DNA from: a virus
Strand: one strand, 5' to 3'
DNA length: 45,424 bases
UHGV virus genome: UHGV-0356033
Shown here: positions 24,973 to 38,704 of the stretch, piece by piece
Position numbering within the stretch: the first letter of the stretch is position 1
Layout of the letters: every line of letters starts with the position of its first letter
Notes under the pieces: model-generated
What the model saw: the letters and a program-made list of their open reading frames with translations, nothing else
Database searches by the model: none
Told to the model about the DNA's origin: nothing
Made by a program: the position numbers and the translations under genes

Positions 24973-25158
24973 CTAATTCCGCCATTCGCATTCGCGTTGA
25001 CGCCAAATTGAACCCCATGATAGTTTAATCAGATAAGATGAAACTACCCATAAAATCATCACCACACAAAACATGACATAAAGAACCGCTAGTATGGACA
25101 TGAAGCCAAACCCTGCCGCATCCACAATACGACGGAACCAATCAGTTTGCATAAACAA
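24973..25158 (-). CDS. small membrane protein (about 59-61 aa)
   Basis: Hydrophobic core FGFMSILAVLYVMFCVVMILWVVSSYLI; TTG 25158 with GAAGGAG SD 6 nt upstream (or ATG 25152); overlaps 3' end of ATPase gene. Confidence 0.4.
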   Translation of the reverse strand: MFMQTDWFRRIVDAAGFGFMSILAVLYVMFCVVMILWVVSSYLIKLSWGSIWRQRECEWRN

Positions 25159-27646: not shown

Positions 27647-27676
27647 ACCCACCTCCATAAAGACGGAGTGTGGTGT

Positions 27677-27719
27677 AAAAAGAAAAAAATAAAGAAAGGG
27701 AGAACCCGAAGGTTCTCCC
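27677..27719 (-). terminator. intrinsic terminator downstream of gene 27725..28333
   Basis: Stem 27698-27706/27711-27719 (GGGAGAACC/GGTTCTCCC) with CGAA loop; long T-run on minus strand. Confidence 0.6.
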
Positions 27720-27724
27720 AAACG

Positions 27725-28333
27725 TTATTTGGTGTACAGGTGATAACCCATTGAAGTCCAATAATCGACGTTCTTCGTGTTTTCTACCCAAACCTGTCCC
27801 GCCTTTGTGGCTAAGACTTCCATTGTCAATGTACAGATCAGATTTGTTACCGGGATACAATTTCCAGGTGTAACATCATCCAGATAAACCGGATATAAAA
27901 ACGGCGATTTAATGGATTGGTACGGGTAAGAATAGTGGTTACCGACTTTCCACCCTTCTTCTACAGGACAGAGATTAAAAGTACGTGTTTCAGGAACTGC
28001 ATTTTCAGAGATCCAGTTAACAACATCGGCTTTGATTCGATCGTGGTCGATATAGTAGAACACAACACGTTGTGGGATGCTTGTGGTACCAGCCGGATCT
28101 AAAGCCTCCAGCGCCTTGAAAGGCGACGTCAACAATGTTGTACTGTTTTCAAGCGCGTAAACCAACTTTTCGTAAGCGGTCGGCGTTTTGCGTTTAAAAT
28201 ATTCCCGTAAGCGTGGGTACGCCAGGAAGCCCTCTACTTCTTCTTCCATTAAGTCGATGAATAAAGGCGTGTGCGAAAAACGCTCTGCATTTTGCATCGC
28301 TTCAAGAAAACGAACTAATGTAATTTCGTTCAT
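27725..28333 (-). CDS. hypothetical protein (202 aa)
   Basis: ATG 28333 with AAGGAA SD; no Mre11/SbcD phosphoesterase motifs seen. Confidence 0.55.
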   Translation of the reverse strand: MNEITLVRFLEAMQNAERFSHTPLFIDLMEEEVEGFLAYPRLREYFKRKTPTAYEKLVYALENSTTLLTSPFKALEALDPAGTTSIPQRVVFYYIDHDRIKADVVNWISENAVPETRTFNLCPVEEGWKVGNHYSYPYQSIKSPFLYPVYLDDVTPGNCIPVTNLICTLTMEVLATKAGQVWVENTKNVDYWTSMGYHLYTK

Positions 28334-28350
28334 CTGGTCTTTCCTTTTAG

Positions 28351-28381
28351 ATCAAAAAAAGAAGCCCCGAGTAAACGGGGC
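28351..28381 (-). terminator. intrinsic terminator downstream of gene 28390..28866
   Basis: Stem GCCCCG/CGGGGC (28364-28369/28376-28381); T7 run on minus strand. Confidence 0.55.
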
Positions 28382-28389
28382 CGGGCTAA

Positions 28390-28866
28390 TTATAGCCCTA
28401 AGTGCGTGAGTGATAAAATAGGCTGCGTTTCACCTTTAATCGTCGCGAAGGAACGATACATTTCTGCGTTACTTGAAAAAACTTCGTTAGCAACAATACA
28501 TTCACCCGTCTCTAAAGAAAGGAGATAAATGTAGTCACTCCATACGCTTTGTACCAACACCCATTCAAGTGTGGTGTCATTTTCGCGTGTTGTCCGCAGG
28601 TGGTGAAAGTAAGGCCGGATTGCATCAACCGCCGCATTAAAACGACGGTGATAAATTCGGGTTAAGTCAAATGTCCAGATTGTTTCCAGGTCGACTGGAT
28701 GTAATGTGCGCACCGTTTCGATAATCGTCGACTGATCGTTAATACGTGAGGCTTCGGCGATACGCAGTAGTTTCCAGGCCACCGTTAAGTTGTGGCGAAT
28801 TTGTTCAGGTTTAGCCGACAGGTCATGATGAAATTGCGCAGCTTGGTAAACGTTAGATAATTGCAT
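28390..28866 (-). CDS. hypothetical protein (158 aa)
   Basis: ATG 28866 with AAAGGAG SD. Confidence 0.55.
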   Translation of the reverse strand: MQLSNVYQAAQFHHDLSAKPEQIRHNLTVAWKLLRIAEASRINDQSTIIETVRTLHPVDLETIWTFDLTRIYHRRFNAAVDAIRPYFHHLRTTRENDTTLEWVLVQSVWSDYIYLLSLETGECIVANEVFSSNAEMYRSFATIKGETQPILSLTHLGL

Positions 28867-28894
28867 TTTAATACTCCTTTAGGTAAAACATGTC

Positions 28895-28923
28895 GTAAAA
28901 AGGACCCCGGACGTACCGGGGTC
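28895..28923 (-). terminator. intrinsic terminator downstream of gene 28934..29323
   Basis: Stem GACCCCGG/CCGGGGTC (28903-28910/28916-28923); T-run on minus strand. Confidence 0.55.
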
Positions 28924-28933
28924 AAGACTACAC

Positions 28934-29323
28934 TCAATGATCTAATTCGATAGCACCAGCCATCTTGCCCCGTTCTTCGATAACGATCAGATAACGGTCG
29001 CGTGATTTGCTTTTAGCGAGAGTTAAGACAACAGTAGGGTCGCACGTTTTTGTGGTGATTGGAAGAACCTCTTGTGCGACGGAATCGAGCAGAAAGTAAT
29101 AACCTGCGGGACACATTGTTCCACCATCAGCTTTTACCAGAATATAGCGCCCGTCTGCGCCGACTTCTTGGCAGATTGTTTCACCGACTTCACAAACTTC
29201 AAACCCCGGAGGATTGTACTGGTAATCGGTATTGTTGTTTGGGGTTAGCAGTAAATCGTTAACGTGAGTAGATGCTGCTACACTCAGGGAGAAGAAGAAT
29301 GCTAAAACGCAGACGAGACGCAT
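28934..29323 (-). CDS. small secreted Cys-containing protein (129 aa)
   Basis: Signal peptide MRLVCVLAFFFSLSVAAS; AAGGAG SD; several Cys in mature part. Confidence 0.55.
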   Translation of the reverse strand: MRLVCVLAFFFSLSVAASTHVNDLLLTPNNNTDYQYNPPGFEVCEVGETICQEVGADGRYILVKADGGTMCPAGYYFLLDSVAQEVLPITTKTCDPTVVLTLAKSKSRDRYLIVIEERGKMAGAIELDH

Positions 29324-29333
29324 GAGTTACTCC

Positions 29334-29744
29334 TTAAATTTTAAGTTTATCCATAGCCACAACGATAGGTTTTTCCGAAGTGTCTAATATCCCTACCATT
29401 GGCACACCATCTACGACTTTGAAGAATGGTTTGTTATTGCCTGAGCACAACTGTTTGTCGTTGTATTCGAGACGTTGAGCCTTCCACGTTTCGAGGTTGA
29501 GTACGGACATCGGGCTGTCGTAGCACCAGGCACCGCCTTGCTCAACGATGAATACGTATCTGCTACCTTTGTATTTAAACAGACTCTTCGCCTGGCAGTA
29601 CAACCCGTCAATTTCCGTACAATAGAAATCATCGGTGCTATTGACGTATTTAATACCGTCTGGTAACTGTGTTGTTTTTGCTGTAGCGTTAACAGAGAAC
29701 AGAACAGCAATTGCAATGAGAAGAGTATTGATGATAGTTTTCAT
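29334..29744 (-). CDS. small secreted Cys-containing protein (136 aa)
   Basis: Signal peptide MKTIINTLLIAIAVLFSVNATA; AAGGA SD. Confidence 0.55.
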   Translation of the reverse strand: MKTIINTLLIAIAVLFSVNATAKTTQLPDGIKYVNSTDDFYCTEIDGLYCQAKSLFKYKGSRYVFIVEQGGAWCYDSPMSVLNLETWKAQRLEYNDKQLCSGNNKPFFKVVDGVPMVGILDTSEKPIVVAMDKLKI

Positions 29745-29755
29745 GATAGAAGTCC

Positions 29756-30241
29756 TTAGTATTTAGATTGTTCTGCGTATTTCTTAACCAGGTAAGCGAA
29801 TTCAGCAACACCGATATCACCGAACCAAATCAGATAACCGGGGTCGATGTTGTAGTAATAACCGACAAGTTTCTTGGTGTGTGGGTTGTATAGCGTTACG
29901 ATATATTCCCAGCCACAAGCGTTAGCTTTACAACCGCCGCTTTCAATCCAGATTTTGTTGTTGATGTTTACCGGATACATGTTACCTCCAGGGCCATCCA
30001 TGTAACCTTTAGAGCCGAACATACCATCCAGTCCCACGCGGTCTAGTGTTTTATCAACAACGGCTTTAAACGACTTATCGGTATCGTACAAGTCGTTGAT
30101 GTTTGGGCACGCATTTGGCTGACCTTCCCAAGCGTTTCCATCACAGGTAAGCAATTCGTCTACGGAGGCCGCATCTACAGTTGGTGTGACACCGATAAAC
30201 AAGAAAACCAGAAAGAACATCAGTGTATGTAAACGTTTCAT
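29756..30241 (-). CDS. small secreted Cys-containing protein (161 aa)
   Basis: Signal peptide MKRLHTLMFFLVFLFIGVTPTVDA; AAGGAG SD. Confidence 0.55.
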   Translation of the reverse strand: MKRLHTLMFFLVFLFIGVTPTVDAASVDELLTCDGNAWEGQPNACPNINDLYDTDKSFKAVVDKTLDRVGLDGMFGSKGYMDGPGGNMYPVNINNKIWIESGGCKANACGWEYIVTLYNPHTKKLVGYYYNIDPGYLIWFGDIGVAEFAYLVKKYAEQSKY

Positions 30242-30259
30242 TGTAACTACTCCTTTAGA

Positions 30260-30652
30260 TTATTCGGCAGGACGATTTAAGGTAACGCGCCCGATTAATT
30301 CGGCGTTGTGAAAGAAGTCCACAGCGGTATAGTTACCAACTGATAGCGGATGGATACTAACTGACATTACTTTTGGTTGCTCGCAGGCAATATCCGTCAG
30401 ACGTTGGTAGACTTGTGCACGGGTGTCAGCAATGAGTAATCCCGTACACGTTTCACCACGCACTAAACGATAAACTTGCAGTTTACCGAAACTGCGCATT
30501 AACGTAGGCGTCTCATCCGGGTTGATAATCGGTGAGTCAGGAGCCGGTTCGTAATAGCGGACATCCGAATCACCGAAAGCATAAGTACCGGTAATACCGA
30601 CTGCACAGAAAATAATGATAGTATAAAGTATAGTTCTGATATTCATTTTCAC
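30260..30652 (-). CDS. small secreted protein (130 aa)
   Basis: N-terminal hydrophobic signal MKMNIRTILYTIIIFCAVGITGTYA; start (GTG 30652 or ATG 30646) uncertain. Confidence 0.45.
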   Translation of the reverse strand: MKMNIRTILYTIIIFCAVGITGTYAFGDSDVRYYEPAPDSPIINPDETPTLMRSFGKLQVYRLVRGETCTGLLIADTRAQVYQRLTDIACEQPKVMSVSIHPLSVGNYTAVDFFHNAELIGRVTLNRPAE

Positions 30653-30674
30653 GCACTCTAAAAAAGATTAATAT

Positions 30675-31136
30675 TTATTTGTTAGGACGGGTGTGTCCAC
30701 AGTTCTGGAAGAAAGTTTCAGACAGACGTTCGCCTTCTACGGTAAAGTTAGCGGCGTCGTTACCATTGATACTCACACTGAAAGTTTTGGCATTACCGAT
30801 GGCATTAACGAAAGCAACCCAAGCGCGTTCTGCTTTGTCACTACCGTCCACGGTAGGGATGTTATAGGTTTTGCCGTTTACGACAATATCGATCGTGTTA
30901 TCTTCAGCGTTAGTTGCACCTACGGGTTCACCGTAATACCAAACCATGCGACCGTAAAATTTGCGATTCGCAGTTTCAGTGTCACAGTTGATAGACAGTC
31001 CGTTTCCGGCGGTGTCTTCGATTTCGTAAACTGCCTGGCCAGGGTTTTGTATTTGTTCCCAGCTGTTGATAGCGGCGTGTGCGCTATTGAGGCCGAAAGT
31101 TAAAATGGTTATTAAGAAACTGATAAAGGTTTTCAT
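30675..31136 (-). CDS. small secreted protein (153 aa)
   Basis: Signal peptide MKTFISFLITILTFGLNSAHA; AAGGAG SD. Confidence 0.55.
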   Translation of the reverse strand: MKTFISFLITILTFGLNSAHAAINSWEQIQNPGQAVYEIEDTAGNGLSINCDTETANRKFYGRMVWYYGEPVGATNAEDNTIDIVVNGKTYNIPTVDGSDKAERAWVAFVNAIGNAKTFSVSINGNDAANFTVEGERLSETFFQNCGHTRPNK

Positions 31137-31182
31137 TGAAATGCTCCTTCTGGTTATGGGGAAGTTCCCACAAATTATGAAA

Positions 31183-31554
31183 TTAAATAACTGTGTTGGG
31201 GAATGCTTTAATCTGTGTATAACTATCTCCGATACCTCTTATCATTTCCAGACGTTCTTCTGTAGAAAGGCTTTGGTTAATGTCTTTGTCGAGATTGAAC
31301 AGTGTCAAGAGTTTTGCAATTGCAACCGTCAGGTTGTCGGACAGCTCGTTGTTTTTACGCCATTCTTCGTTACGGAAAATAGAGATAAGGTCTTTCGCCT
31401 GGCCTTCAGCGTGTGGTTTGGCTAACTGCGCGTCACGCTGTTCGATAAGGTATGCTTCGTTGGTAAGTAAACGTTTCAGGTCTTCTGGGTTAGTGGCAGC
31501 GCGAGTAACGATCAGTAATACAACAAACGGGTCTTTAAATAATTCGTTTTTCAT
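31183..31554 (-). CDS. hypothetical protein (123 aa)
   Basis: ATG 31554 with AGGAGAA SD. Confidence 0.55.
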   Translation of the reverse strand: MKNELFKDPFVVLLIVTRAATNPEDLKRLLTNEAYLIEQRDAQLAKPHAEGQAKDLISIFRNEEWRKNNELSDNLTVAIAKLLTLFNLDKDINQSLSTEERLEMIRGIGDSYTQIKAFPNTVI

Positions 31555-31584
31555 CTTTAGTTCTCCTAAAATGGTTTTAGTTAA

Positions 31585-31626
31585 GTGAGAGCTTTTGTAC
31601 TCTCACCTAAGTAATATATATCTGAA
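31585..31626. promoter_or_regulatory. conserved regulatory element copy 1: stem-loop plus 19-bp motif TAAGTAATATATATCTGAA
   Basis: Stem GTGAGAG/CTCTCAC (31585-31591/31600-31606) immediately followed by motif at 31608-31626; identical 19-mer recurs at 35894-35912. Confidence 0.4.
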
Positions 31627-31644
31627 ATTATTTTTAATATTAAC

Positions 31645-31679
31645 GAACAAAAAATAAAAGGTGGGGGTTTACCCCCACC
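31645..31679 (-). terminator. intrinsic terminator downstream of gene 31684..32262
   Basis: G/C stem GTGGGGG/CCCCCAC around 31660-31679; T-run on minus strand. Confidence 0.5.
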
Positions 31680-31683
31680 GATG

Positions 31684-32262
31684 TTATACATCGAACCGGT
31701 ACTGCCGGGAGTTAATGAGGAACTCGGTATTCAGCTCAATCCATTCGAGTAAATCACCCAACGGTAATCGGTTTGGGTTTTCTAACTCAATAGACGCTAC
31801 CGGATAAGAGTTTACTAATTCCGTAATTGCCTCAATACCCTCTTGCGTTCCATCGTCTTCTAAGGTGATTGTAAACGGCATATCGGCACGATCCGCATTA
31901 GGATTGTACAAACTGACTTTCGTTGCTTGGACAAACGCAGTCAGGTCGTCACGTATAATGCGTGTATCAGGCGCTAGAACTACCCAGAGATGTTGTCCTG
32001 GCTGGAGTTTACGTTTTGCGTAGTTTAAGAACGGATTAGCCGGTAAGCTTTCTAAACCACTGCAAATGTTCCGTAAATGAATCCCTCGTGGGTCTTTATA
32101 GTCCACGCTGAAGATTCCTACCGGTTCCTTCGCTGCCTGTTTTATCAGAAAGACCAATACCGTGTCCGCTCTTTCTGGTAAGGAAAGCTCTATTCCCTCA
32201 AGCTCCCCATCGACGAGGTTTTCCAACCAAACGTCTTTTCGCATTTCTATTAATCGGTACAC
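31684..32262 (-). CDS. hypothetical protein (about 186-192 aa)
   Basis: ORF; GTG 32262 with GAGGTGG SD, or ATG 32244. Confidence 0.5.
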   Translation of the reverse strand: MYRLIEMRKDVWLENLVDGELEGIELSLPERADTVLVFLIKQAAKEPVGIFSVDYKDPRGIHLRNICSGLESLPANPFLNYAKRKLQPGQHLWVVLAPDTRIIRDDLTAFVQATKVSLYNPNADRADMPFTITLEDDGTQEGIEAITELVNSYPVASIELENPNRLPLGDLLEWIELNTEFLINSRQYRFDV

Positions 32263-32274
32263 GGTACCACCTCA

Positions 32275-33048
32275 CTATTGATTAAGTTTTACATCGGCAA
32301 TAAACAGCAATTGTTTACCATGTTGCTGCACTTCTTTCCAACCCAGTTTCATAGCAGCGTCAACAACATCTAACATGCTGTAACGGGACATCAACGCGGT
32401 TGATTTTGTTCCTGACATTAAATAAAGTGGCTCATTAGGGCAACGGTCTCGAGCATCAGGAAGTTCTCGAATAACCGCTGAGCCTTCGGGTACGGTAACA
32501 ACATGAATCACGGTAAATGGTCTCTTGTGTGTTAAGTAGATACGGAACCCAACGTGTTCAGATTCATGAAAGATTTTCTTCACGACCACATCTTTCAGTG
32601 TCGTCTGAACATCATCCCCAGGTAATATCGTGGATTCACGAGAAACGAAACAACGACTATTTTCAATCGTGGAGAAATAATTACGTATCGGCAAACTGGC
32701 GTTATGATCGCGCAGTTTTTTGCTCAATAGATCGAAGTTCAGTTCTTTAACTTTTTCTAACCACTCTTTGGCTTGTTGAATGTAATAACTACCAACAGCG
32801 CGATAAGTTAATACCTTACCTGTGCTCACTTTCCAAAGCTTGATGCTTAGTGAATTTGGCTTATAGCGACGATACTCACCCTGCGTATGGTTGATGCGCT
32901 CGTAACGCTCTACATCATCAACTGGTGCAGATTCGACCGATTGTAATTGCAGCGTACGATCTAATCTATCGGCAAATAGTAGTGATGATAGCGGGCCTTC
33001 GATCATATACGGTTCGGTTTTAAAGATATCGTCTAAATGGACTTTCAT
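32275..33048 (-). CDS. paralogue-array member A (257 aa), C-terminal GW...QLLF motif
   Basis: ATG 33048 with AAGGAA SD; C-terminus KLGWKEVQQHGKQLLFIADV; N-terminus MKVHLDDIF. Confidence 0.6.
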   Translation of the reverse strand: MKVHLDDIFKTEPYMIEGPLSSLLFADRLDRTLQLQSVESAPVDDVERYERINHTQGEYRRYKPNSLSIKLWKVSTGKVLTYRAVGSYYIQQAKEWLEKVKELNFDLLSKKLRDHNASLPIRNYFSTIENSRCFVSRESTILPGDDVQTTLKDVVVKKIFHESEHVGFRIYLTHKRPFTVIHVVTVPEGSAVIRELPDARDRCPNEPLYLMSGTKSTALMSRYSMLDVVDAAMKLGWKEVQQHGKQLLFIADVKLNQ

Positions 33049-33061
33049 TTCTATTTCCTTC

Positions 33062-33089
33062 TTAACAAAAGCCGCGACTAAAGCGCGGC
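33062..33089 (-). terminator. intrinsic terminator downstream of gene 33116..34267
   Basis: Stem GCCGCG/CGCGGC (33071-33076/33084-33089); TTTTGTT on minus strand. Confidence 0.45.
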
Positions 33090-33115
33090 AGTTAGAGAAA
33101 GTGTATTTTCACTTA

Positions 33116-34267
33116 TTAGAGGTCAGCAACAAACAACAGCTGACTGCCGTATTTTTGCACGTCAGCCCAACCGTAGTCTTTCCCGATTATAGGTAGATGT
33201 AAAGCATCCAGTTTCTCGTCTTTTGCCTTTAGTTGCGCCATTAGCGCATTGGACGCCTCGGCACTGAGCAGTAATGCGGGTTCTTTTTCAGTACGTCCTT
33301 CTGCGGTCGGGAAGAAATCGTAATAGCTGCGAGTAGGTAAATCGACAGAAAAACTACGATTGCCTATTATGATGAAGAACGCAACTCCTTCACAGTTAGC
33401 ATCTACACTACACGACCACCCCGCCTCTGTTAAAAGGTCTTTTAACAGACACCACACTTTAAGTTGGTCCTTAGAAAGTGTACGGTAGATAGCAAGATGG
33501 TCAGGAAGTAAATGTACAGCCATAACCACGTTTTCAGATTTCTCGTCAAGCAACTCTGGATGTTGAATCGGGAACAATAATTCACTGATACCCACGTTAT
33601 CAATTTTGTTAACAAAATCAGTTAATTCATCTTTTAAGGTACGCACGGATTTTTCTCCTTCGACTTCAATAATCTGGTGGGGTTCGCCGCTAATTAAAAT
33701 GTGGTAAACGATGTCGTCGGTAGAACGGTAAGTGAGTTTGATAGCTTTATCACTTAACATTTCGTAGCGGAAGAAACTTTCGTACCAACTTGAGCCGAAA
33801 TCGTTTCGTGTAAGTTCCTGCTCAACTTTGATGGTTTTTGCTTCAAAGCCAATTAACCCGCTTAATAACGCGAGTTCTGGCTTAGTTAAAATAGCCGCAC
33901 CGTGAAAGGGCACTTTCTCAAGCTGAAAACATAAATTACTGACTTTACCACTTGGGAAGACCTTAAACATAATCTTCCGGTTGCTACTCTTTTCTCTAAC
34001 AACGAGTTTACGGTAATTTAGTCCACAATTTGAGTAAACCGCGAACTGGTAACCTTCAATTTCTTCATCGTAAGTACAGACATCGACAGGCGCGATAATC
34101 TCATCGTATTCACTAAGTACACAGCAGCCCAAGTTATAACCAAACAACTCGCGTTGTAATGAAGACTCGATGGTTAAGCTTGGTAGTGACCAAACCCGAT
34201 TATAGCATCTGTCCATCAATTCTTTTAGGATTTTGACATGTCCTGGTTTAGAAATAATATTTCGCAT
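33116..34267 (-). CDS. paralogue-array member B (383 aa), C-terminal GW...QLLF motif
   Basis: ATG 34267 with AAGGAGAG SD; C-terminus KDYGWADVQKYGSQLLFVADL. Confidence 0.6.
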   Translation of the reverse strand: MRNIISKPGHVKILKELMDRCYNRVWSLPSLTIESSLQRELFGYNLGCCVLSEYDEIIAPVDVCTYDEEIEGYQFAVYSNCGLNYRKLVVREKSSNRKIMFKVFPSGKVSNLCFQLEKVPFHGAAILTKPELALLSGLIGFEAKTIKVEQELTRNDFGSSWYESFFRYEMLSDKAIKLTYRSTDDIVYHILISGEPHQIIEVEGEKSVRTLKDELTDFVNKIDNVGISELLFPIQHPELLDEKSENVVMAVHLLPDHLAIYRTLSKDQLKVWCLLKDLLTEAGWSCSVDANCEGVAFFIIIGNRSFSVDLPTRSYYDFFPTAEGRTEKEPALLLSAEASNALMAQLKAKDEKLDALHLPIIGKDYGWADVQKYGSQLLFVADL

Positions 34268-34296
34268 TTTTACTCTCCTTTAGGGTTTTTCGTTAC

Positions 34297-34851
34297 TTAA
34301 GCAGGGTAAGCTAAGAACAACAACTGCTGGCCGAGTTTACGTACGGTATACCAACCGTGGGCTTTAGCGACCGCGATCAACGTTTCCCAGTCGTCAACAT
34401 CGCACTGCTCATTCCGAAGTCTTGTAAAGAGCGCCTCGGCTTCGCTTTGGTTTAATAACTTACCTGGATCGTCTGGGGTGCAATCAGTAGGGGTTGGAAA
34501 GAAAGCATACTGCCGCGCTAGGAGAAAATCGACCAGATACTTGGTGCTCTCTTTATAAACCAGCGTGGAAGTCTTCCCTTCGTGGAAGAAGCTACCTGTT
34601 TTCCAAACGCTATCTTTCAGTAAGCTCTGAAAGTAATCTGTAAAACCCGTTCTAAACGGGATATGGGTTTTACGTGTGATGTTGCGACGCAGCGGAGTTT
34701 CCTCTACAGCTTGTACACTTACCCCTACTATCATCGCACCTGGCTGAATAATGGTATTGGTCAGTACAGTATAAGGACGGACAAAGAAATGTTCGCCTAC
34801 GCCTTTTTCAAGGGTTTGGATAATTTCATTTTTCAGTTCAGTTTGAAACAT
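34297..34851 (-). CDS. paralogue-array member C (184 aa), C-terminal GW...QLLF motif
   Basis: ATG 34851 with AAGGAGAA SD; C-terminus KAHGWYTVRKLGQQLLFLAYPA. Confidence 0.6.
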   Translation of the reverse strand: MFQTELKNEIIQTLEKGVGEHFFVRPYTVLTNTIIQPGAMIVGVSVQAVEETPLRRNITRKTHIPFRTGFTDYFQSLLKDSVWKTGSFFHEGKTSTLVYKESTKYLVDFLLARQYAFFPTPTDCTPDDPGKLLNQSEAEALFTRLRNEQCDVDDWETLIAVAKAHGWYTVRKLGQQLLFLAYPA

Positions 34852-34880
34852 GGTATATTCTCCTTTTTCGGTTTTCTTAA

Positions 34881-35618
34881 TTACGCGGTTTTAATTAGCA
34901 GCAGATAGTCTTTCGTAATCTCAGCACAACTCCACCCTCTCATCGTGGCGATTTTACGAAGATCGATTTTCTCGTGATATCTCAATAAGGGATCGTCCGG
35001 GTTAATTTCAACCAGGTGGGTGGCTTTAGAAATCGTTTCTACATCAGGGATCTGTTTTGCTAAGTCTGATGCAATCAGTTCAATAACGCGGTATCCATTT
35101 AATACAGAAACATAAATGCGTAAACCATATAGCGTGCCCTCGTCTTCTAATGGACAAAGATCGATGCCAGGTCCAAGCAGTGATAACTCGACGTTATCGG
35201 GAAGGTTTTCTGCATTTCGGAGTAACCCTATCCCATTTCTAAACAGAGGGAAGTAAGAGAATAGTGGTGGTAAAGCCCAACCGTTCCCAATAAGCACATC
35301 AGCGATACTAGTAGGTGTGTTCGCAAGAAGACGAATGTGGTCAGCCACAACTTCAAGTTCGGCGTCACTGATCAACTTATAGATTAACATGACACTGGTT
35401 TCGGTATTAATAACAAAGAAGACGCGGTTGGCGTAACTACCTATCGTGTATTCGTCAATCATACGGTCGATAACGTCACTGTCTGGATAATCTTCAGGTT
35501 TAATTGTTCCGGCGTCGATTAACTTAGCAGGTTGCGATTGTTTTATTAGTTCGTTAACCACCGTAGAAGAAAGTTCTAAACTGGTGTTAGTAAAGATATC
35601 GTCTAATAATTCTCTCAT
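34881..35618 (-). CDS. paralogue-array member D (245 aa), divergent C-terminal motif
   Basis: ATG 35618; N-terminus MRELLDDIF matches member A; C-terminus RGWSCAEITKDYLLLIKTA is a degenerate version of the motif. Confidence 0.5.
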   Translation of the reverse strand: MRELLDDIFTNTSLELSSTVVNELIKQSQPAKLIDAGTIKPEDYPDSDVIDRMIDEYTIGSYANRVFFVINTETSVMLIYKLISDAELEVVADHIRLLANTPTSIADVLIGNGWALPPLFSYFPLFRNGIGLLRNAENLPDNVELSLLGPGIDLCPLEDEGTLYGLRIYVSVLNGYRVIELIASDLAKQIPDVETISKATHLVEINPDDPLLRYHEKIDLRKIATMRGWSCAEITKDYLLLIKTA

Positions 35619-35714
35619 GATTTACTCGCTAATCCCAATGAAGGGAAGGCTATTATTATGGATTGTAAAAGAGGTATAAGGAAGTCACTACGTTCCTCTG
35701 GGAAGAGTATGTCG

Positions 35715-35773
35715 GTATACTCCGTATACCTCCGCTATTTATATCCGTATACATAATGCCCCCTACCCCCTAC
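35715..35773. repeat. three TC(C/G)GTATAC palindrome-containing repeats plus tandem CCCCTAC x2
   Basis: GTATAC at 35715-35720, 35724-35729 and 35747-35752; CCCCTAC at 35760-35766 and 35767-35773; inside a 320-bp divergent intergenic region. Confidence 0.5.
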
Positions 35774-35860
35774 CGGTATCCCGAGTAGCAGAATAAAGGG
35801 GCAGACTGTAAAATTTTAGTAACCTTTAACGAAAGGTACTAAAAGGATAACGTGCCCGTA

Positions 35861-35912
35861 GGGACTGAACTGGTACTTCAGTCCCTATTCACTTAAGTAA
35901 TATATATCTGAA
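35861..35912. promoter_or_regulatory. conserved regulatory element copy 2: stem-loop plus 19-bp motif, 28 bp upstream of gene 35940
   Basis: Stem GGGACTGAA/TTCAGTCCC (35861-35869/35877-35885) followed by TTCACT then TAAGTAATATATATCTGAA at 35894-35912. Confidence 0.45.
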
Positions 35913-35939
35913 TTCAATTCCGATCTAAGGAACGTCCCG

Positions 35940-36905
35940 ATGGAGAAATCCAGTGTTGATTTTTTCTCAATTGGTATCGTCGCGGAAGACAAACCCCGTG
36001 GTACAGATCGGGTAAAAGTGATACCAATTGAAACCAACTTTGCTAACCCTACCGTGGTGCAATCTGTTTCTTCAGCAACTGAAAAGACACACGAAACATC
36101 TGGTGCAACAGATAACCTAACCATTAAGACGGGAAACACGATAACGGCAAAGTGGTGGAAGTTTAACTCCAACCGAATTAATTCCCCTGACGTTAAACGA
36201 GAAGACTACGTTATCTTGTTACGTTTGGGGAAAACCGATATTTATTTTTGGATTGATCTGAACTTCGCTAACGTTAAGCGATTAGAAGATGCGGTTTATG
36301 CGTGGTCGGCTGACCCTGAAAACCAAATGGCGGATGACCTGTCGAACGCGTATGTGTTGAATGTCTCGACAATTGACAAACATATCACGCTAAGAACAAG
36401 TATGGTAAACGGCGAGAAAGCGGCGTGGTTGTTTCAGTTTGATAATGCAAACGGTACGTGGCAGTGTGTTGACCATAAAGGAAACAAGTATTACATTAAC
36501 TCGGTGGAAGACGATTTAGGTTTTGAGAATGCGATGCTTTCAAAAGTGAACATCAACAAAGAAGATGCGTTCATTTATTCAAAGCGTTCTATTAACCTGG
36601 AAACGAAAACGATTAATGAAAAATGTGAAGTCCGCAATACAGAAGCAGCGAAATCCGTTACGTTTAAAACACAAACCTGGTTAACGGAAGCGGGAAGTTC
36701 GACAACGTTTAAAACGCCGAACTTTAAACAAGAAGGGAAGGAAGCGATGTTCACCGGTAATTTGGAAGTCGCTAAGAACTTCAAATACGGTGGTACGGGT
36801 GAAGGTGTGGGTGTCTTTACGGTTAAAGATGCCATTATTTCCGGTATTACCTTTAGCGTTCACATTCACCAAGGTAAACATGGCCCGACATCACCTCCGC
36901 AGTAA
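35940..36905 (+). CDS. hypothetical protein (321 aa), possibly virion or tail associated
   Basis: ATG 35940 with AAGGAA SD; sits at head of rightward tail-fibre region; beta-rich T/N/K composition; function not recognised. Confidence 0.55.
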   Translation: MEKSSVDFFSIGIVAEDKPRGTDRVKVIPIETNFANPTVVQSVSSATEKTHETSGATDNLTIKTGNTITAKWWKFNSNRINSPDVKREDYVILLRLGKTDIYFWIDLNFANVKRLEDAVYAWSADPENQMADDLSNAYVLNVSTIDKHITLRTSMVNGEKAAWLFQFDNANGTWQCVDHKGNKYYINSVEDDLGFENAMLSKVNINKEDAFIYSKRSINLETKTINEKCEVRNTEAAKSVTFKTQTWLTEAGSSTTFKTPNFKQEGKEAMFTGNLEVAKNFKYGGTGEGVGVFTVKDAIISGITFSVHIHQGKHGPTSPPQ

Positions 36906-37022
36906 TTCCCCTTTTTCTTACGTTGTTTTTATATATTGTGACCTGACGTTGGTAAAACTTTTTATCAACACTTTTCTTAAACCCATCGTTTAGTTAAGCA
37001 GGCCACTTTTTCGCGCACTCTA

Positions 37023-37042
37023 CTCCTCCCTACGGGGAGGAG
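37023..37042 (+). other. G/C-rich stem-loop upstream of DUF1471 gene
   Basis: CTCCTCCC/GGGAGGAG stem with TACG tetraloop; weak U-tract, so insulator or weak terminator. Confidence 0.3.
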
Positions 37043-37111
37043 CTATCTTATGCTTCGGTTGTAACACACGTCGGTCTTAGACCAACATTCCTTTTGAAAT
37101 GGAGAGCTGTT

Positions 37112-37321
37112 ATGTCTATTAAAGAGTTCTCTTCTGCTGAGCATATTCCAGAAGAGTTTAAGAAAATCGGTAACGTTAGCGCTTTCGGCGACACCGTTGA
37201 TCATGTAACTGGTAAGCTGGCTGCTGAAGCCGAAAAAATTGGCGGCGACGCATTCAAGGTTATCGGTATTTCCGGCAACAACAAACTGCACGGTAACGCG
37301 ATTGTCTACAAAAAAGACTAA
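37112..37321 (+). CDS. DUF1471-domain protein (BhsA/McbA/YdgH-like), 69 aa, no signal peptide
   Basis: KIGNVSAFGDTVDHVTGKLAAEAEKIGGDAFKVIGISGNNKLHGNAIVYK matches, from memory, the C-terminal domain of E. coli BhsA (...LEEQLAQKADEMGAKSFRITSVTGPNTLHGTAVIYK); GGAGAG SD 5 nt before ATG 37112. Confidence 0.55.
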   Translation: MSIKEFSSAEHIPEEFKKIGNVSAFGDTVDHVTGKLAAEAEKIGGDAFKVIGISGNNKLHGNAIVYKKD

Positions 37322-37323
37322 GC

Positions 37324-37383
37324 GAAAAAAAAAAACGTGCTACTCCTACCCTCTTAGAGGGTAGGAGGTTACTTTATTTTTTT
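37324..37383. terminator. bidirectional intrinsic terminator
   Basis: A10 run, then palindrome CCTACCCTCT/AGAGGGTAGG (37345-37365), then TTACTTTATTTTTTT; serves DUF1471 gene and convergent gene 37374..38636. Confidence 0.65.
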
Positions 37384-38636
37384 CGTGCTCTAAAGCGATG
37401 CATTTCTAAATACACTTTTTCCCAGGGACCGAATGGACCGACGATTGCTTGCGCGTCGTTAATCTTCTTCTGATTATACCACCGGGCTTCACGAAAGACG
37501 TAGTTTTGACTGTCGAACTCCGTGGTGTTAAATACCCACTCACCCTCCTCCCATGTAGGCCAATAGCCCACCGTCTTTCCGAAGCGATTATTTAAGTACC
37601 CTAATGGTTTTTCAGAATCAGGATCGCTAGGGTCCTTGAGATAACAACGTCCCCAAACTGCGTTATGTGATACACCCACAACCTCTTCTTCTAAATACGG
37701 ATTATCTACCGTAAAGATAAACGAAGACTCGTGGAGTAAAAGTGCCTTTAATGTTTCGGGGTTGCGAATACGTTGGACATTAGTAGGTGTTGATAAATCC
37801 CCCACACCGATGGCGTCCCAGTCGTAATAGCGACGGGTTTCCAGAACGGTCCGTGCAAGATCAAAATTCGGTAAAGAAATCATGATCGCACGGTCGGAGA
37901 AATAACCGCCAGGAGGCAACCAACGTAACAGTCCACCGATGACGAAACCCACCGTTTTTCCCGTGATAGATTCGGGCAGCGAAATCATTAACGTGGAGTA
38001 ATAGTCACGTGTAGTATCGAGCTTGTTTAGGGTAAGGTTGGCAATGGGGTAAGTTTTAACATTCCCTAACTGACCAAAAACCATACAGCCGATATCTGGC
38101 GTACAGGCTCTTCGTACGATTTTACCGGCCCCGGGTAATCGGACACCTACGGTATCTGTCTGGTGCGGTACCCATTGACCGTTAATGTTGTACAGTACAC
38201 TATTACGGTATTTGTCCTTCCACTTGTCCTCACAAACGATGACAACGTCATCAGCATCGTCTAAGCTGAAATCTTGACTGTGGTGGTACCCAGGCGGACA
38301 CAGATATGTTTCAACGGGTACGTCAGCATTAATCGATTGGTAATGTGCCCAACTGAATTCGAGTTTCGGCAATCCGGCTTTTAGAGTAGGGATGACGTTT
38401 CCGGCTTTTTCATTTAACCAATCTTGTAAAGTGTCTGTTCGGTTTTGTAGTTCGGCAAGATGGTATTGGCTGACTAGCGTATAGTCTTTACCAAGTGCAC
38501 TTAAACCGATCTCAAAGGTGTGGTAGTCTGAACACAACGTATTTAAGGGTTGCGTGACATCGATGGCTCCCCAGGTACGGGACTCTCGAGAGAAGCCAAA
38601 AGCGCTGTCGGGCCGCACTTGATAAGCAGTAGTCAC
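37374..38636 (-). CDS. hypothetical protein (420 aa), GTG start
   Basis: Long minus-strand ORF between plus-strand tail genes; no ATG near 5' end; GTG 38636 with AGAGGA SD. Confidence 0.5.
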   Translation of the reverse strand: MTTAYQVRPDSAFGFSRESRTWGAIDVTQPLNTLCSDYHTFEIGLSALGKDYTLVSQYHLAELQNRTDTLQDWLNEKAGNVIPTLKAGLPKLEFSWAHYQSINADVPVETYLCPPGYHHSQDFSLDDADDVVIVCEDKWKDKYRNSVLYNINGQWVPHQTDTVGVRLPGAGKIVRRACTPDIGCMVFGQLGNVKTYPIANLTLNKLDTTRDYYSTLMISLPESITGKTVGFVIGGLLRWLPPGGYFSDRAIMISLPNFDLARTVLETRRYYDWDAIGVGDLSTPTNVQRIRNPETLKALLLHESSFIFTVDNPYLEEEVVGVSHNAVWGRCYLKDPSDPDSEKPLGYLNNRFGKTVGYWPTWEEGEWVFNTTEFDSQNYVFREARWYNQKKINDAQAIVGPFGPWEKVYLEMHRFRARKK

Positions 38637-38704
38637 AGCTCTTTTCCTCTATAGATTCAAGTCATAGTATGAACTTCGACGCCCACGGACTATAGGAGTA
38701 GAGA

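Follow-up and report, generated by a model that had tools for sequence, protein, structure and literature searches.

A predicted leftward promoter and a conserved stem-loop module upstream of the baseplate-hub gene of a phiKZ-like jumbo phage

Genes and phage affiliation of the locus

The window analysed here is a stretch of 45,424 nucleotides of the virus genome UHGV-0356033, read 5' to 3' on one strand. At positions 35619-35939 it contains a 321-bp gap that separates a block of leftward genes from the baseplate-hub gene on its right (35940-36905), which is read rightward and whose ATG follows the ribosome-binding site AAGGAA (35927-35942 including the start codon, plus strand). The product of this gene matches phrog_3216, baseplate assembly protein, with an E-value of 3.7e-114 and shares 58-76% identity with its orthologues in the SPN3US and phiEaH2 group. 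In line with the initial annotation, the gap is the largest true intergenic region; a seemingly larger one at 36906-37373 is not intergenic throughout, because it contains a 69-aa gene (37112-37321) with 71% identity to phiEaH2 gp094. The neighbouring proteins lack any Pfam match, and for this reason no DNA-binding domain was seen among them; their only PHROGs are of unknown function. A coding sequence hidden in the gap was considered and rejected, as the longest open reading frames (ORFs) comprise 31-32 aa and the spacing of conserved blocks shifts among lineages by non-multiples of 3. Scans of the region for sigma-70 promoters and terminators returned nothing above shuffles.

Megablast against a phage collection gave no match to a near-identical phage, so that affiliation required distant and protein searches. 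Blastn and tblastn identified the group of Erwinia phage phiEaH2 and Salmonella phage SPN3US as the relatives of the window, which, judged by its sequence, comes from a phiKZ-like jumbo phage; the closest relative of this phage is IMGVR_UViG_3300029126_000001. Phages of this group are annotated with RNA polymerases of their own, and the annotation of SPN3US lists eight RNA-polymerase beta-subunit genes (PMC5105663); none was found within the 45-kb window, the rest of the phage genome lying outside the search. We found no transcriptome for the SPN3US/phiEaH2 group in the literature, and all start sites and timing classes given for the group are inferred.

All features listed for the gap in the initial annotation were recovered where it had placed them, and the comparison with related phages revealed counterparts of the whole control region. 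That a control region, conserved and non-random, lies where the leftward block meets the baseplate gene thus holds, while its reading as operator half-sites for a dimeric regulator does not. The gap appears to be a mosaic boundary between a leftward early-type gene block and the rightward baseplate-hub gene, composed mostly of ordinary jumbo-phage promoter architecture together with one uncharacterised conserved element.

The predicted leftward promoter and its hairpins

The 19-bp element TAAGTAATATATATCTGAA occurs in exactly two copies, at 31608 and 35894; the one in the gap had been annotated before as copy 2. On the minus strand it reads as the core of an AT-rich promoter that occurs throughout the group, CAGATATATATTACYTARGTGA. 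In the gap, the reverse complement of the element forms the promoter core CAGATATATATTACTTAAGTGA, with TT before it, at 35889-35912 on the minus strand; the core sequence of this leftward promoter is ATATATTAC, and ATATATATTAC sits inside the 22-nt core. A role of the element in serving the tail gene is at odds with this orientation, as the core points left, away from the baseplate gene. The 22-nt pattern has two exact matches in the window versus zero expected, and 48 exact copies across 18 related phage contigs, 12 of which exceed 200 kb. At 44 of 45 unique sites a Shine-Dalgarno (SD) sequence and an ORF lie downstream (median distance 49 nt), a T-run is located upstream of 38 of the 45, and the promoter-proximal hairpins have a mean energy of -9.0 kcal/mol compared with -3.9 kcal/mol for shuffles; the layout in common is terminator, A/T-rich element, core, hairpin, SD and ATG. 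All matrix matches in the window (4/4) are on the gene strand, and 17 of the 18 in the whole SPN3US genome (8 strong and 10 weaker) are on the majority-gene strand; the strong SPN3US matches that were checked lie upstream of co-oriented genes. For this group, a model of the putative early promoter is thereby supplied that combines the 22-nt core with an A/T-rich element before it and a 5' hairpin after it.

The two copies in the window represent the extremes of this collection. The one at 31603-31626 (minus strand) has the highest upstream score of all sites (28.1) and a canonical context, with an intrinsic terminator, the A/T-rich upstream element, core, hairpin, AGGAG and the ATG of gene 31183-31554 in this order. 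The 35.9-kb copy has the lowest upstream score (3.6) and is the exceptional site at which no ORF is present within 160 nt. Because it is missing the A/T-rich upstream element, and because four of six clade members carry an A-to-T change inside the core, this promoter may be weak.

Jumbo phages that encode RNA polymerases each possess a conserved AT-rich early motif of ~10 nt, centred near -10 (PMC7598289), and the early promoters of the phiKZ and AR9 type, read by a virion multisubunit RNA polymerase, are the one promoter class of these phages that can be found bioinformatically (PMC7598289, PMC8244752, PMC5312081). The promoters described here are similar in several respects: an AT-rich core of about 10 nt is highly conserved, the stretch before it is rich in A/T, the 5' leaders are short, and each genome has many copies, placed in front of operons that run in the same direction and consist of hypothetical genes. 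They differ in their sequence, which is specific to the group of SPN3US, Erskinevirus, Machinavirus, Wellingtonvirus and Derbicusvirus, and in the hairpin that follows almost every copy in the SPN3US-type group. By analogy with phiKZ and AR9, from which both timing and polymerase are taken, they would belong to the early class, and the core within the 19-bp element would fire leftward, early, by virion RNA polymerase. Compared with phiKZ and AR9 early promoters, the 35.9-kb copy is atypical in being antisense within the upstream region of a late gene. The left block (34881-35618 plus the genes that follow) showed no further early-type promoter upstream of it and is therefore probably expressed by read-through from the 35.9-kb promoter.

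Directly downstream of the promoter core, a perfect inverted repeat at 35859-35887 (minus strand) forms an 11-bp stem-loop, TAGGGACTGAA / TTCAGTCCCTA, with a 7-nt loop. Across six clade members, all of its 66 pair cells are paired, both partners of three pairs have changed in a compensatory manner, and the loop is free to vary; the stem-loop is predicted to be the 5'-proximal hairpin of the leftward transcript. An AU-rich 13-bp hairpin followed by UUUU (35810-35844, stem-loop 35814-35844, minus strand) forms a weak terminator-like end, which the consensus terminator scan does not call. Neither inverted repeat had been mentioned in the initial annotation. The minus-strand RNA of 91 nt at 35805-35895 folds into the two hairpins with -29.7 kcal/mol (z -4.1), and none of 200 shuffles was as good. 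A search with Rfam 15 near the gap produced only weak matches at chance level, such as mir-9447 on the 35857-35889 hairpin (E 5.2).

Stem-loops at the 5' terminus stabilise a number of bacterial and phage mRNAs, for example the 5' hairpin of ompA. The hairpins at the 45 promoter sites and at 35859-35887 resemble such stabilisers in lying at transcript 5' ends, which are predicted ones here, and in having covarying stems with free loops.

In the relatives L004-L006, the two hairpins flank a 25-codon ORF, of which L013 has a frameshifted version and the window and L003 have none. The comparison shows promoter and hairpins to be the remnant of a small cassette, whose ORF is deleted in the window and which was inserted between the ancestral baseplate promoter and the baseplate start codon. 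In its ORF-less form (promoter, hairpin, hairpin-U4), the cassette could give rise to an RNA of ~80 nt antisense to the baseplate upstream region.

Stem-loop P1 in a conserved single-copy module

The three GTATAC repeats, TCGGTATAC at 35712-35720 and TCCGTATAC at 35721-35729 and 35744-35752, are spaced 9 and 23 bp start to start, as previously noted. GTATAC is found 12 times in the window versus 10.3 expected, and its total number is therefore at chance; three of the 12 fall within 38 bp, which under random placement has a p of about 5e-4, and the window has no other GTATAC cluster. The first two copies are the arms of a stem-loop, P1, GGTATAC-tcc-GTATACC at 35714-35730. That they form a single 7-bp inverted repeat had escaped the initial annotation.

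In six lineages P1 has six different stems, namely GGTATAC/GTATACC, GGTGAC/GTCACC, GGTATCC/GGATACC, GGTACTC/GAGTACC, GGTACCC/GGGTACC and GGTAGC/GCTACC, and all of them are perfectly complementary (42 of 42 pair cells paired). Three of the six shared pairs are changed on both sides, and the covariation score of 0.587, compared with 0.143 for shuffles, was reached by none of 500 shuffles. Conserved GTC and TCCG flank P1 on its left and right, respectively. Depending on the lineage, P1 measures 16-18 bp in all and has a loop of 3-6 nt. Sequence comparison indicates that P1 is selected for pairing rather than for sequence, and the variation in length and loop is more easily reconciled with a stem-loop than with a rigid protein dimer. 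The strand cannot be assigned, because all pairs are Watson-Crick; a DNA cruciform or a palindromic site for a protein would account for P1 equally well.

The third GTATAC is confined to the clade of the window and is part of a hairpin, TATAT-CCGT-ATACA (35740-35753), that occupies the place of a variable helix, P2, in the relatives. On the minus strand this hairpin pairs as UGUAU/AUAUA with one G.U; on the plus strand there is an A.C mismatch instead.

P1 and P2 are embedded in a module that also comprises AAGGA-N-GTCG, CCTCCG and a C5-N3-C5 box. The tandem CCCCTAC at 35760 and 35767 is present as annotated and lies within the sole CCCCCTACCCCC of the window (35759-35770), the near-invariant box itself extending over 35759-35773 on the plus strand; its CCCC...CCCC columns are invariant across 14 lineages. 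At the left end (35664-35697, plus strand), TGTAAAAG is followed by ATAAGGAAGTC, a second copy of the block-1 motif, and then by the small hairpin that had been described, AGGAA (35679-83) and TTCCT (35693-97) forming a 5-bp stem. Homologues of this end occur in phiEaH2, Asesino and L008, the hairpin reading GAGGA/TCCTC in Asesino versus AAGGA/TCCTT in phiEaH2.

The module is located upstream of the baseplate gene throughout the group, and its invariant blocks persist in 14 lineages with baseplate-protein identity down to 42%. Its linked blocks occur once in the 240 kb of SPN3US, at 161.44-161.56 kb of NC_027402, with a single C-box linked to the other blocks, and this single copy in a whole related genome excludes a regulon of GTATAC sites. 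A general promoter class was likewise rejected, as the motifs are found at the baseplate locus only (575 kb of sampled relatives and whole SPN3US). Neither the phiKZ-type phage KTN4 nor Vibrio phage Yong MS32 has the module at the orthologous locus, where their intergenic regions are short and unrelated; scanning viral contigs with AAGGAWGTCG...CTCCG gave chance matches only, and Rfam had no match over the module in the window and six related loci up to E = 5-10.

Possible functions of the module and a candidate late start

Comparative folding mildly favours an RNA read from the minus strand. The RNAalifold consensus has -10.1 kcal/mol and 22 pairs on this strand versus -1.87 kcal/mol and 8 pairs on the plus strand, and 89.5% of the pair cells of the minus-strand structure are paired, compared with 79.8% in shuffled and 47-62% in slid controls. 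Several lineages have G.U at P2 positions on the minus strand, and one such G.U in SPN3US is A-U in Proteus phage 7. Two near-invariant blocks are brought together by a long-range helix on the minus strand, which contains many G.U pairs and shows no clean covariation. The stability of the module is not significant versus dinucleotide shuffles (mean z -0.7 for the plus and -1.1 for the minus strand), and a stable structured RNA was rejected in view of these weak single-sequence z-scores on both strands.

We propose a joint reading, which we regard as somewhat probable, that combines the leftward promoter, the cassette remnant and selection of P1 for pairing with a module acting at the RNA or polymerase level. 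The first two GTATAC copies are probably stem-loop arms and not repressor binding sites, and the module would probably act as RNA or as a polymerase-recognition element rather than through operators, as far as can be inferred. In the genome of the window, its minus strand would be the leader of the leftward transcript.

The initial proposal, that the palindromes are operator half-sites through which a dimeric regulator switches on tail-gene expression, could draw on the significant clustering of the three sites, on the operator-sized, perfect 17-bp palindrome of P1 and on the position at the early/late boundary. A DNA-binding protein recruiting RNA polymerase to phiKZ middle promoters has been proposed as a possibility (PMC4666361), and SPN3US has an annotated helix-turn-helix DNA-binding protein, gp165, directly downstream of an early-type promoter match. 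However, the half-sites differ in six lineages with complementarity kept everywhere, their spacing is not fixed, the third site is clade-specific, and neither a cognate DNA-binding protein among the neighbours (Pfam) nor sites at other promoters were seen, GTATAC clusters being absent elsewhere and the module single copy; we consider operators improbable. Less doubtful, albeit still unlikely in our view, is a stand-alone leftward non-coding RNA or insulator-terminator divergent from the baseplate gene. Its minus-strand order would be G5-N3-G5, P2, GGAGG-P1 and UCCUUUAUUCUUUU, the G-runs pairing with UCCUU in the long-range helix, followed by a U-rich tail. The minus-strand consensus structure with its G.U usage is consistent with such an RNA, as is the U-rich sequence after P1 in most lineages. 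In Phobos, Derbicus, L135 and L012 the minus-strand 3' end lies directly before a leftward early promoter, the position where terminators sit at 38 of 45 early promoters, and the module stays put while its left neighbours vary. Yet no leftward promoter was found to the right of the module in the relatives, the folding z-scores are weak, Rfam gives no match and the terminator scan is negative in the window. The U-tract is missing in STsAS and pEa_SNUABM_29, and P1 in the window likewise has no U-rich tract; as the tail is decayed in this clade, the element would here be part of a read-through leader.

A unique cis site at the DNA level, such as a replication origin, packaging site or single-copy landmark with its hairpins as DNA structures, would agree with one copy per genome and with the switch in gene orientation near the minimum of cumulative GC skew at 34-35 kb; the G5-N3-G5 run and the perfect palindromes could extrude, and an origin might be primed by an R-loop at the G-rich strand. 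The skew minimum, however, is explained by the switch of coding strand at the same place, iterons are absent, and there is no AT-rich unwinding element besides the promoter. The module is also missing at the orthologous loci of phiKZ-type and Vibrio jumbo phages and has no tie to replication or packaging genes, which makes a DNA site very improbable to us. We give least credence, and very little indeed, to an anti-SD function, in which CCUCC of the module would mask the baseplate ribosome site in long early transcripts and late transcripts starting downstream would escape, as in the case of the T4 lysozyme gene e. CCTCCG is conserved beside P1, and ACGTTCCT (35690-97) is a perfect 8-nt complement of the baseplate ribosome site AGGAACGT (35928-35). 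But about one such complement is expected by chance in a region of this size by our estimate, duplex energies between leader and SD are no better than those of dinucleotide shuffles in 16 lineages (mean z -0.12), and a rightward promoter upstream of the module is not known.

Under the joint reading, a plausible-looking operator annotation is replaced by a stem-loop, and a short, deeply conserved, single-copy non-coding module is flagged beside the baseplate-hub gene. It is conceivable, if rather unlikely, that the module, read opposite the baseplate gene, is a cis-element or a small non-coding RNA not described so far and specific to enterobacterial SPN3US-like jumbo phages. It would then represent an sRNA or insulator at the early/late boundary, or a recognition site for the middle-transcription machinery; determinants of middle and late promoter selection in nucleus-forming jumbo phages might be found among conserved non-coding elements near late genes.

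In phage N4, the virion RNA polymerase, a single-subunit, T7-like enzyme, recognises early promoters that are DNA hairpins, with 5-7 bp in the stem and 3 nt in the loop. P1 is similar in its stem of 6-7 bp, its loop of usually 3-4 nt and the conservation of pairing with variable sequence. In contrast to N4, the polymerases here are multisubunit, and P1 is single copy and not associated with a multi-copy promoter motif; the likeness is a resemblance only.

In phiKZ, the late promoter of the non-virion RNA polymerase is 5'-TATG-3', with G as +1 (PMC4666361, PMC7618050). In the present group, TA(G/C/A)TATG(A/T) likewise lies just upstream of structural-gene ribosome sites. At 38.66 kb the motif is invariant between two divergent structural genes, the late core TCATAGTATGAAC being kept in all relatives examined, and we supply TCATAGTATGA from this position as the putative late-promoter core of the group. 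The proximal TA(G/C/A)TATG promoter of the baseplate gene is present in other lineages and in L004-L006 but missing from the window, L003 and L013. Directly before P1, the window has GAGTATG (35705-35711, plus strand), in the position of the group block AAGGA(T/A/G)G; the sequence agrees with AGTATG, the core of the late promoter. Its TATG (35708-35711) and one at 35657 are the only plus-strand occurrences in the gap, and the baseplate mRNA may have its late start at G35711. Transcription from GAGTATG would make P1 the 5' hairpin of this mRNA, and transcription of the region would run leftward early but rightward late. Unlike phiKZ late promoters, this candidate is 229 nt from the start codon, and TATG is not conserved at the orthologous position in relatives outside the clade, where the counterpart is GGATG, GGAAG, GGAGG or GGGTG; the first three would fail the phiKZ requirement, because a strict TATG was measured for that phage. 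The conserved TATG of the relatives, lost in the window, lies ~100 nt further downstream than GAGTATG. A further difference from phiKZ late promoters is an A-run (GTAAAAAAG) before the baseplate copy of the relatives, which resembles the A-rich upstream motif of phiKZ middle promoters.

Repeats in the baseplate-proximal gap

The 321 bp separating the leftward gene 34881-35618 from the rightward gene 35940-36905, which encodes a baseplate assembly (hub) protein (phrog_3216), form the largest true intergenic region of the window; the nominally larger gap 36906-37373 encloses a 69-aa gene. The repeats described there are all present: TCGGTATAC at 35712 and TCCGTATAC at 35721 and 35744, each with one GTATAC, CCCCTAC twice inside the sole CCCCCTACCCCC of the window, a hairpin AGGAA/TTCCT with a 5-bp stem (35679-35697), and one of the two window copies of the 19-mer TAAGTAATATATATCTGAA, the other lying at 31608. 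Overlooked so far were two longer hairpins that lie rightward of the GTATAC sites and the fact that the first two sites together make one inverted repeat, GGTATAC-tcc-GTATACC. Across the window the total of GTATAC is at chance (12 versus 10.3 expected), whereas three sites inside 38 bp have p ~5e-4 under random placement. The observation on the sequence is confirmed, and the arrangement is non-random.

A near-identity search of recorded phages found nothing. The baseplate gene is 68-76% identical in DNA to its orthologues in Erwinia phages phiEaH2, Stratton and Asesino and Salmonella phage SPN3US, and five close relatives in IMG/VR, all on contigs of 107-225 kb, share 93-100% protein identity. 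The window phage and its relatives are phiKZ-like jumbo phages, in which a virion RNA polymerase transcribes the early genes and a non-virion RNA polymerase the late genes (PMC7598289); eight RNA-polymerase beta-subunit genes are annotated in SPN3US. This makes host-like promoters and operators a poor starting assumption for the region; a scan for sigma-70 promoters and terminators gave none above shuffles.

A conserved module and its stem-loop

For the most part the region shows the usual transcription architecture of a jumbo phage: an early-type promoter, 5' hairpins and the degraded remains of an inserted cassette. One item is of real interest: upstream of the baseplate gene lies a module that is deeply conserved and single-copy. 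Every relative carries the identical set of blocks in identical order: A(A/T)AAGGA(T/A/G)GTCG, a short hairpin with CCTCCG at its end, a variable segment, CCCC(C)-N3-CCCC(C), about 45 variable nucleotides, CGTAAAAAAG, TA(G/A/C)TATG(A/T) and the ribosome site. This order is kept as far as the Derbicusvirus group, in which baseplate-protein identity has fallen to 42-46%; the module is absent at the orthologous loci of one phiKZ-type phage and one Vibrio jumbo phage, and Rfam gave no match to it.

At the hairpin position, occupied in the window by the stem-loop P1 (35714-35730), six lineages have six different stems: GGTATAC/GTATACC in the window clade, GGTGAC/GTCACC in phiEaH2, Asesino and L008, GGTATCC/GGATACC in SPN3US and Proteus phage 7, GGTACTC/GAGTACC in STsAS, GGTACCC/GGGTACC in pEa_SNUABM_29 and GGTAGC/GCTACC in Machina. 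All 42 cells of the six shared pairs are paired (42/42), three pairs are changed on both sides, and one displays all four Watson-Crick types; the covariation score of 0.587, against 0.143 in shuffles, is reached by 0/500 shuffles. Selection has therefore acted on pairing and not on GTATAC. The total length of P1 varies between 16 and 18 bp across lineages, which speaks for a stem-loop, whether in RNA or in extruded DNA, and against a pair of half-sites for a rigid dimer. The third GTATAC occurs in the window clade only; the small hairpin that contains it (35740-35753) stands in the place of a different and variable helix, P2, of the relatives. Since the module motifs are confined to the baseplate-upstream locus within 575 kb of sampled relatives, and the linked set occurs once in the 240,413-bp SPN3US genome, they are no general promoter or operator motif. 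The proposal that the GTATAC palindromes are operator sites for a dimeric regulator is thus unsupported: the sequence differs by lineage, the length varies, the third site is clade-specific and the module is single-copy. What comparison across related phages retains is the region with its ordered blocks, not the GTATAC sequence itself.

The predicted leftward promoter and its cassette

Both window copies of the 19-bp element read TTCAGATATATATTACTTA(A/G)GTGA on the minus strand. The copy at 31.6 kb (31603-31626) has a textbook layout of canonical terminator, A/T-rich stretch, core, hairpin, AGGAG and the ATG of gene 31183-31554. In IMG/VR the pattern CAGATATATATTACYTARGTGA occurs without mismatch at 48 places, all with a common layout, on 18 contigs that belong to this phage group; 12 of the contigs exceed 200 kb, and complete genomes carry 3-7 matches each. 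Downstream of 44/45 unique sites there is a Shine-Dalgarno sequence with an ORF of 40 codons or more (median distance 49 nt), a T-run lies upstream of 38/45, and the first 40 nt downstream fold at a mean of -9.0 kcal/mol versus -3.9 for shuffles. A matrix built from the unique sites and run over the whole SPN3US genome gave 8 strong hits, those checked being upstream of co-oriented genes, and placed 17 of 18 hits on the majority-gene strand; in the window, 4/4 hits fall on the minus strand, that of the genes. Judged by this sequence context, the element is the core of a leftward promoter. It fits early promoters of jumbo phages as published, namely an AT-rich, highly conserved motif of ~10 nt near -10 that is bioinformatically findable in each such phage (PMC7598289; for phiKZ, PMC8244752), and by analogy would belong to the early, virion-polymerase class; we found no transcriptome of this phage group in the literature. 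A second, related motif of promoter-like character, (C/G)AGATAGATATTATCT, recurs upstream of coding-strand genes (window 13497 and 4381, both minus; SPN3US 72485, 72683, 92539, 109892, 161918, 184043, 191601 and 23809); it may represent either early promoters of lesser strength or a temporal class of its own.

The gap copy (35889-35912) lies on the minus strand and therefore points away from the baseplate gene. This copy is atypical: its upstream-element score is the lowest of all sites (3.6; 28.1 for the 31.6-kb copy), 4/6 clade members have an A-to-T change within the core, and it is the sole window hit without an ORF within 160 nt. An 11-bp stem-loop follows (35859-35887), with 66/66 pair cells paired in six clade members, two-sided compensatory changes at three pairs and a variable loop. 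Directly behind the promoter copy and this stem-loop, L004 (2794-2868), L005 (2797-2871) and L006 (2794-2868) have a minus-strand 25-codon ORF with a good ribosome site, in two versions, MSTEKKSGLDEVIELFKRYNPAIPR and MFAEQKDGIEEVVRLFRHYSPYLPR; in L013 (~2790-2867) its frame is shifted within an A7 run, and in the window and L003 the ORF is deleted. The window remnant comprises promoter, 5' hairpin, an AU-rich 13-bp hairpin (35814-35844) and UUUU; a folding energy of -29.7 kcal/mol (z -4.1) was calculated for its minus-strand RNA of 91 nt. Left of the cassette, L004-L006 retain GTAAATTTTAAGTAATACTATGATTACCGAGGA, which aligns with the relatives' baseplate promoter and ribosome site, GTAAAAAAG...TA(A/G)TATGA...GAGGAGG; by this alignment, the cassette entered downstream of the ancestral baseplate promoter, ahead of the start codon. 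The ORF's final codons overlap the complement of the ancestral baseplate ribosome site.

Possible transcription across the boundary, and flanking genes

In ten lineages, RNAalifold gave a minus-strand consensus of 22 pairs (-10.1 kcal/mol), in which the G-runs pair with UCCUU of the first block, followed by P2 and then P1; the plus strand gave 8 pairs (-1.87 kcal/mol). On the minus strand 89.5% of pair cells are paired, versus 79.8% in shuffled and 47-62% in slid controls. About 50 paired cells are G.U there, which on the plus strand would mean A.C mismatches, and one SPN3US G.U is A-U in Proteus phage 7. The long-range helix lacks clean covariation because the blocks it joins are near-invariant; single-sequence folding stability of the module is not significant. 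The window's inserted early-type promoter would transcribe the module minus strand and is the sole one of its type detected upstream of the left block (31684-35618); in relatives, no leftward promoter was found right of the module.

The plus strand has its own candidate signal. TCATAGTATGAAC is an invariant palindrome in the gap of the divergent structural gene pair 37374-38636/38705-43027, and from it we infer the group's late-promoter core; this core agrees with the phiKZ late motif TATG, with G as +1 (PMC4666361). At 38662-38672, and at the same position in L001-L014, the palindromic TCATAGTATGA resembles a back-to-back pair of TATG late promoters that overlap; every relative examined has GGTCATAGTATGAAC unchanged. 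The proximal TATG promoter is lost in the window, L003 and L013. Right before P1, GAGTATG (35705-35711) replaces AAGGATG in 6/6 clade members; if G35711 were a late start, P1 would be the 5' hairpin of a 229-nt baseplate leader, paralleling those at early promoters. The GGATG, GGAAG or GGAGG of other lineages at this position counts against such a start. For the strand and role of the module, the best reading by inference is a boundary used in both directions: leftward early transcripts would traverse the module as a leader, and rightward late transcripts may begin at GAGTATG.

Masking of the baseplate ribosome site was rejected, the leader-to-SD duplex having a mean z of -0.12 in 16 lineages. 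At 35690-35697, 230 nt from that site, ACGTTCCT is a perfect complement of it (AGGAACGT, 35928-35935); over a region of such length chance alone would produce about one 8-mer pair of this kind. The GC-skew minimum is accounted for by the coding-strand switch.

Pfam gave no hits in neighbouring proteins. The left block holds paralogues with a common C-terminal domain (phrog_26772, 33648 and 24489 hits in 33116-34267 and 32275-33048), families that in phiEaH2 and Phobos are likewise found on the flanks of the module. The gene adjoining the module varies by lineage, a sign of a possible insertion hot spot. The SbcC-like gene (window 25142-27721, minus) and the baseplate gene form a divergent pair only 64 bp apart in phiKZ-type phages. 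In the window's group an 8-kb leftward block of unknown-function genes (27725-35618), with the module at its edge, separates them. The 69-aa gene, unlisted before (37112-37321, plus), is 71% identical to phiEaH2 gp094, whose counterpart is annotated DUF1471/BhsA-like in SPN3US and Kwan; behind it, an A-run/hairpin/T-run bidirectional terminator (37325-37372) is common to the convergent gene 37374-38636. For the late promoter AGTAATATGAG of L009, Caitlin, L012 and Machina, the reverse complement of the late core GTAATATGA, namely TCATATTAC, has ATATTAC in common with the early core ATATATTAC, which could be chance or could hint at recognition in both directions.
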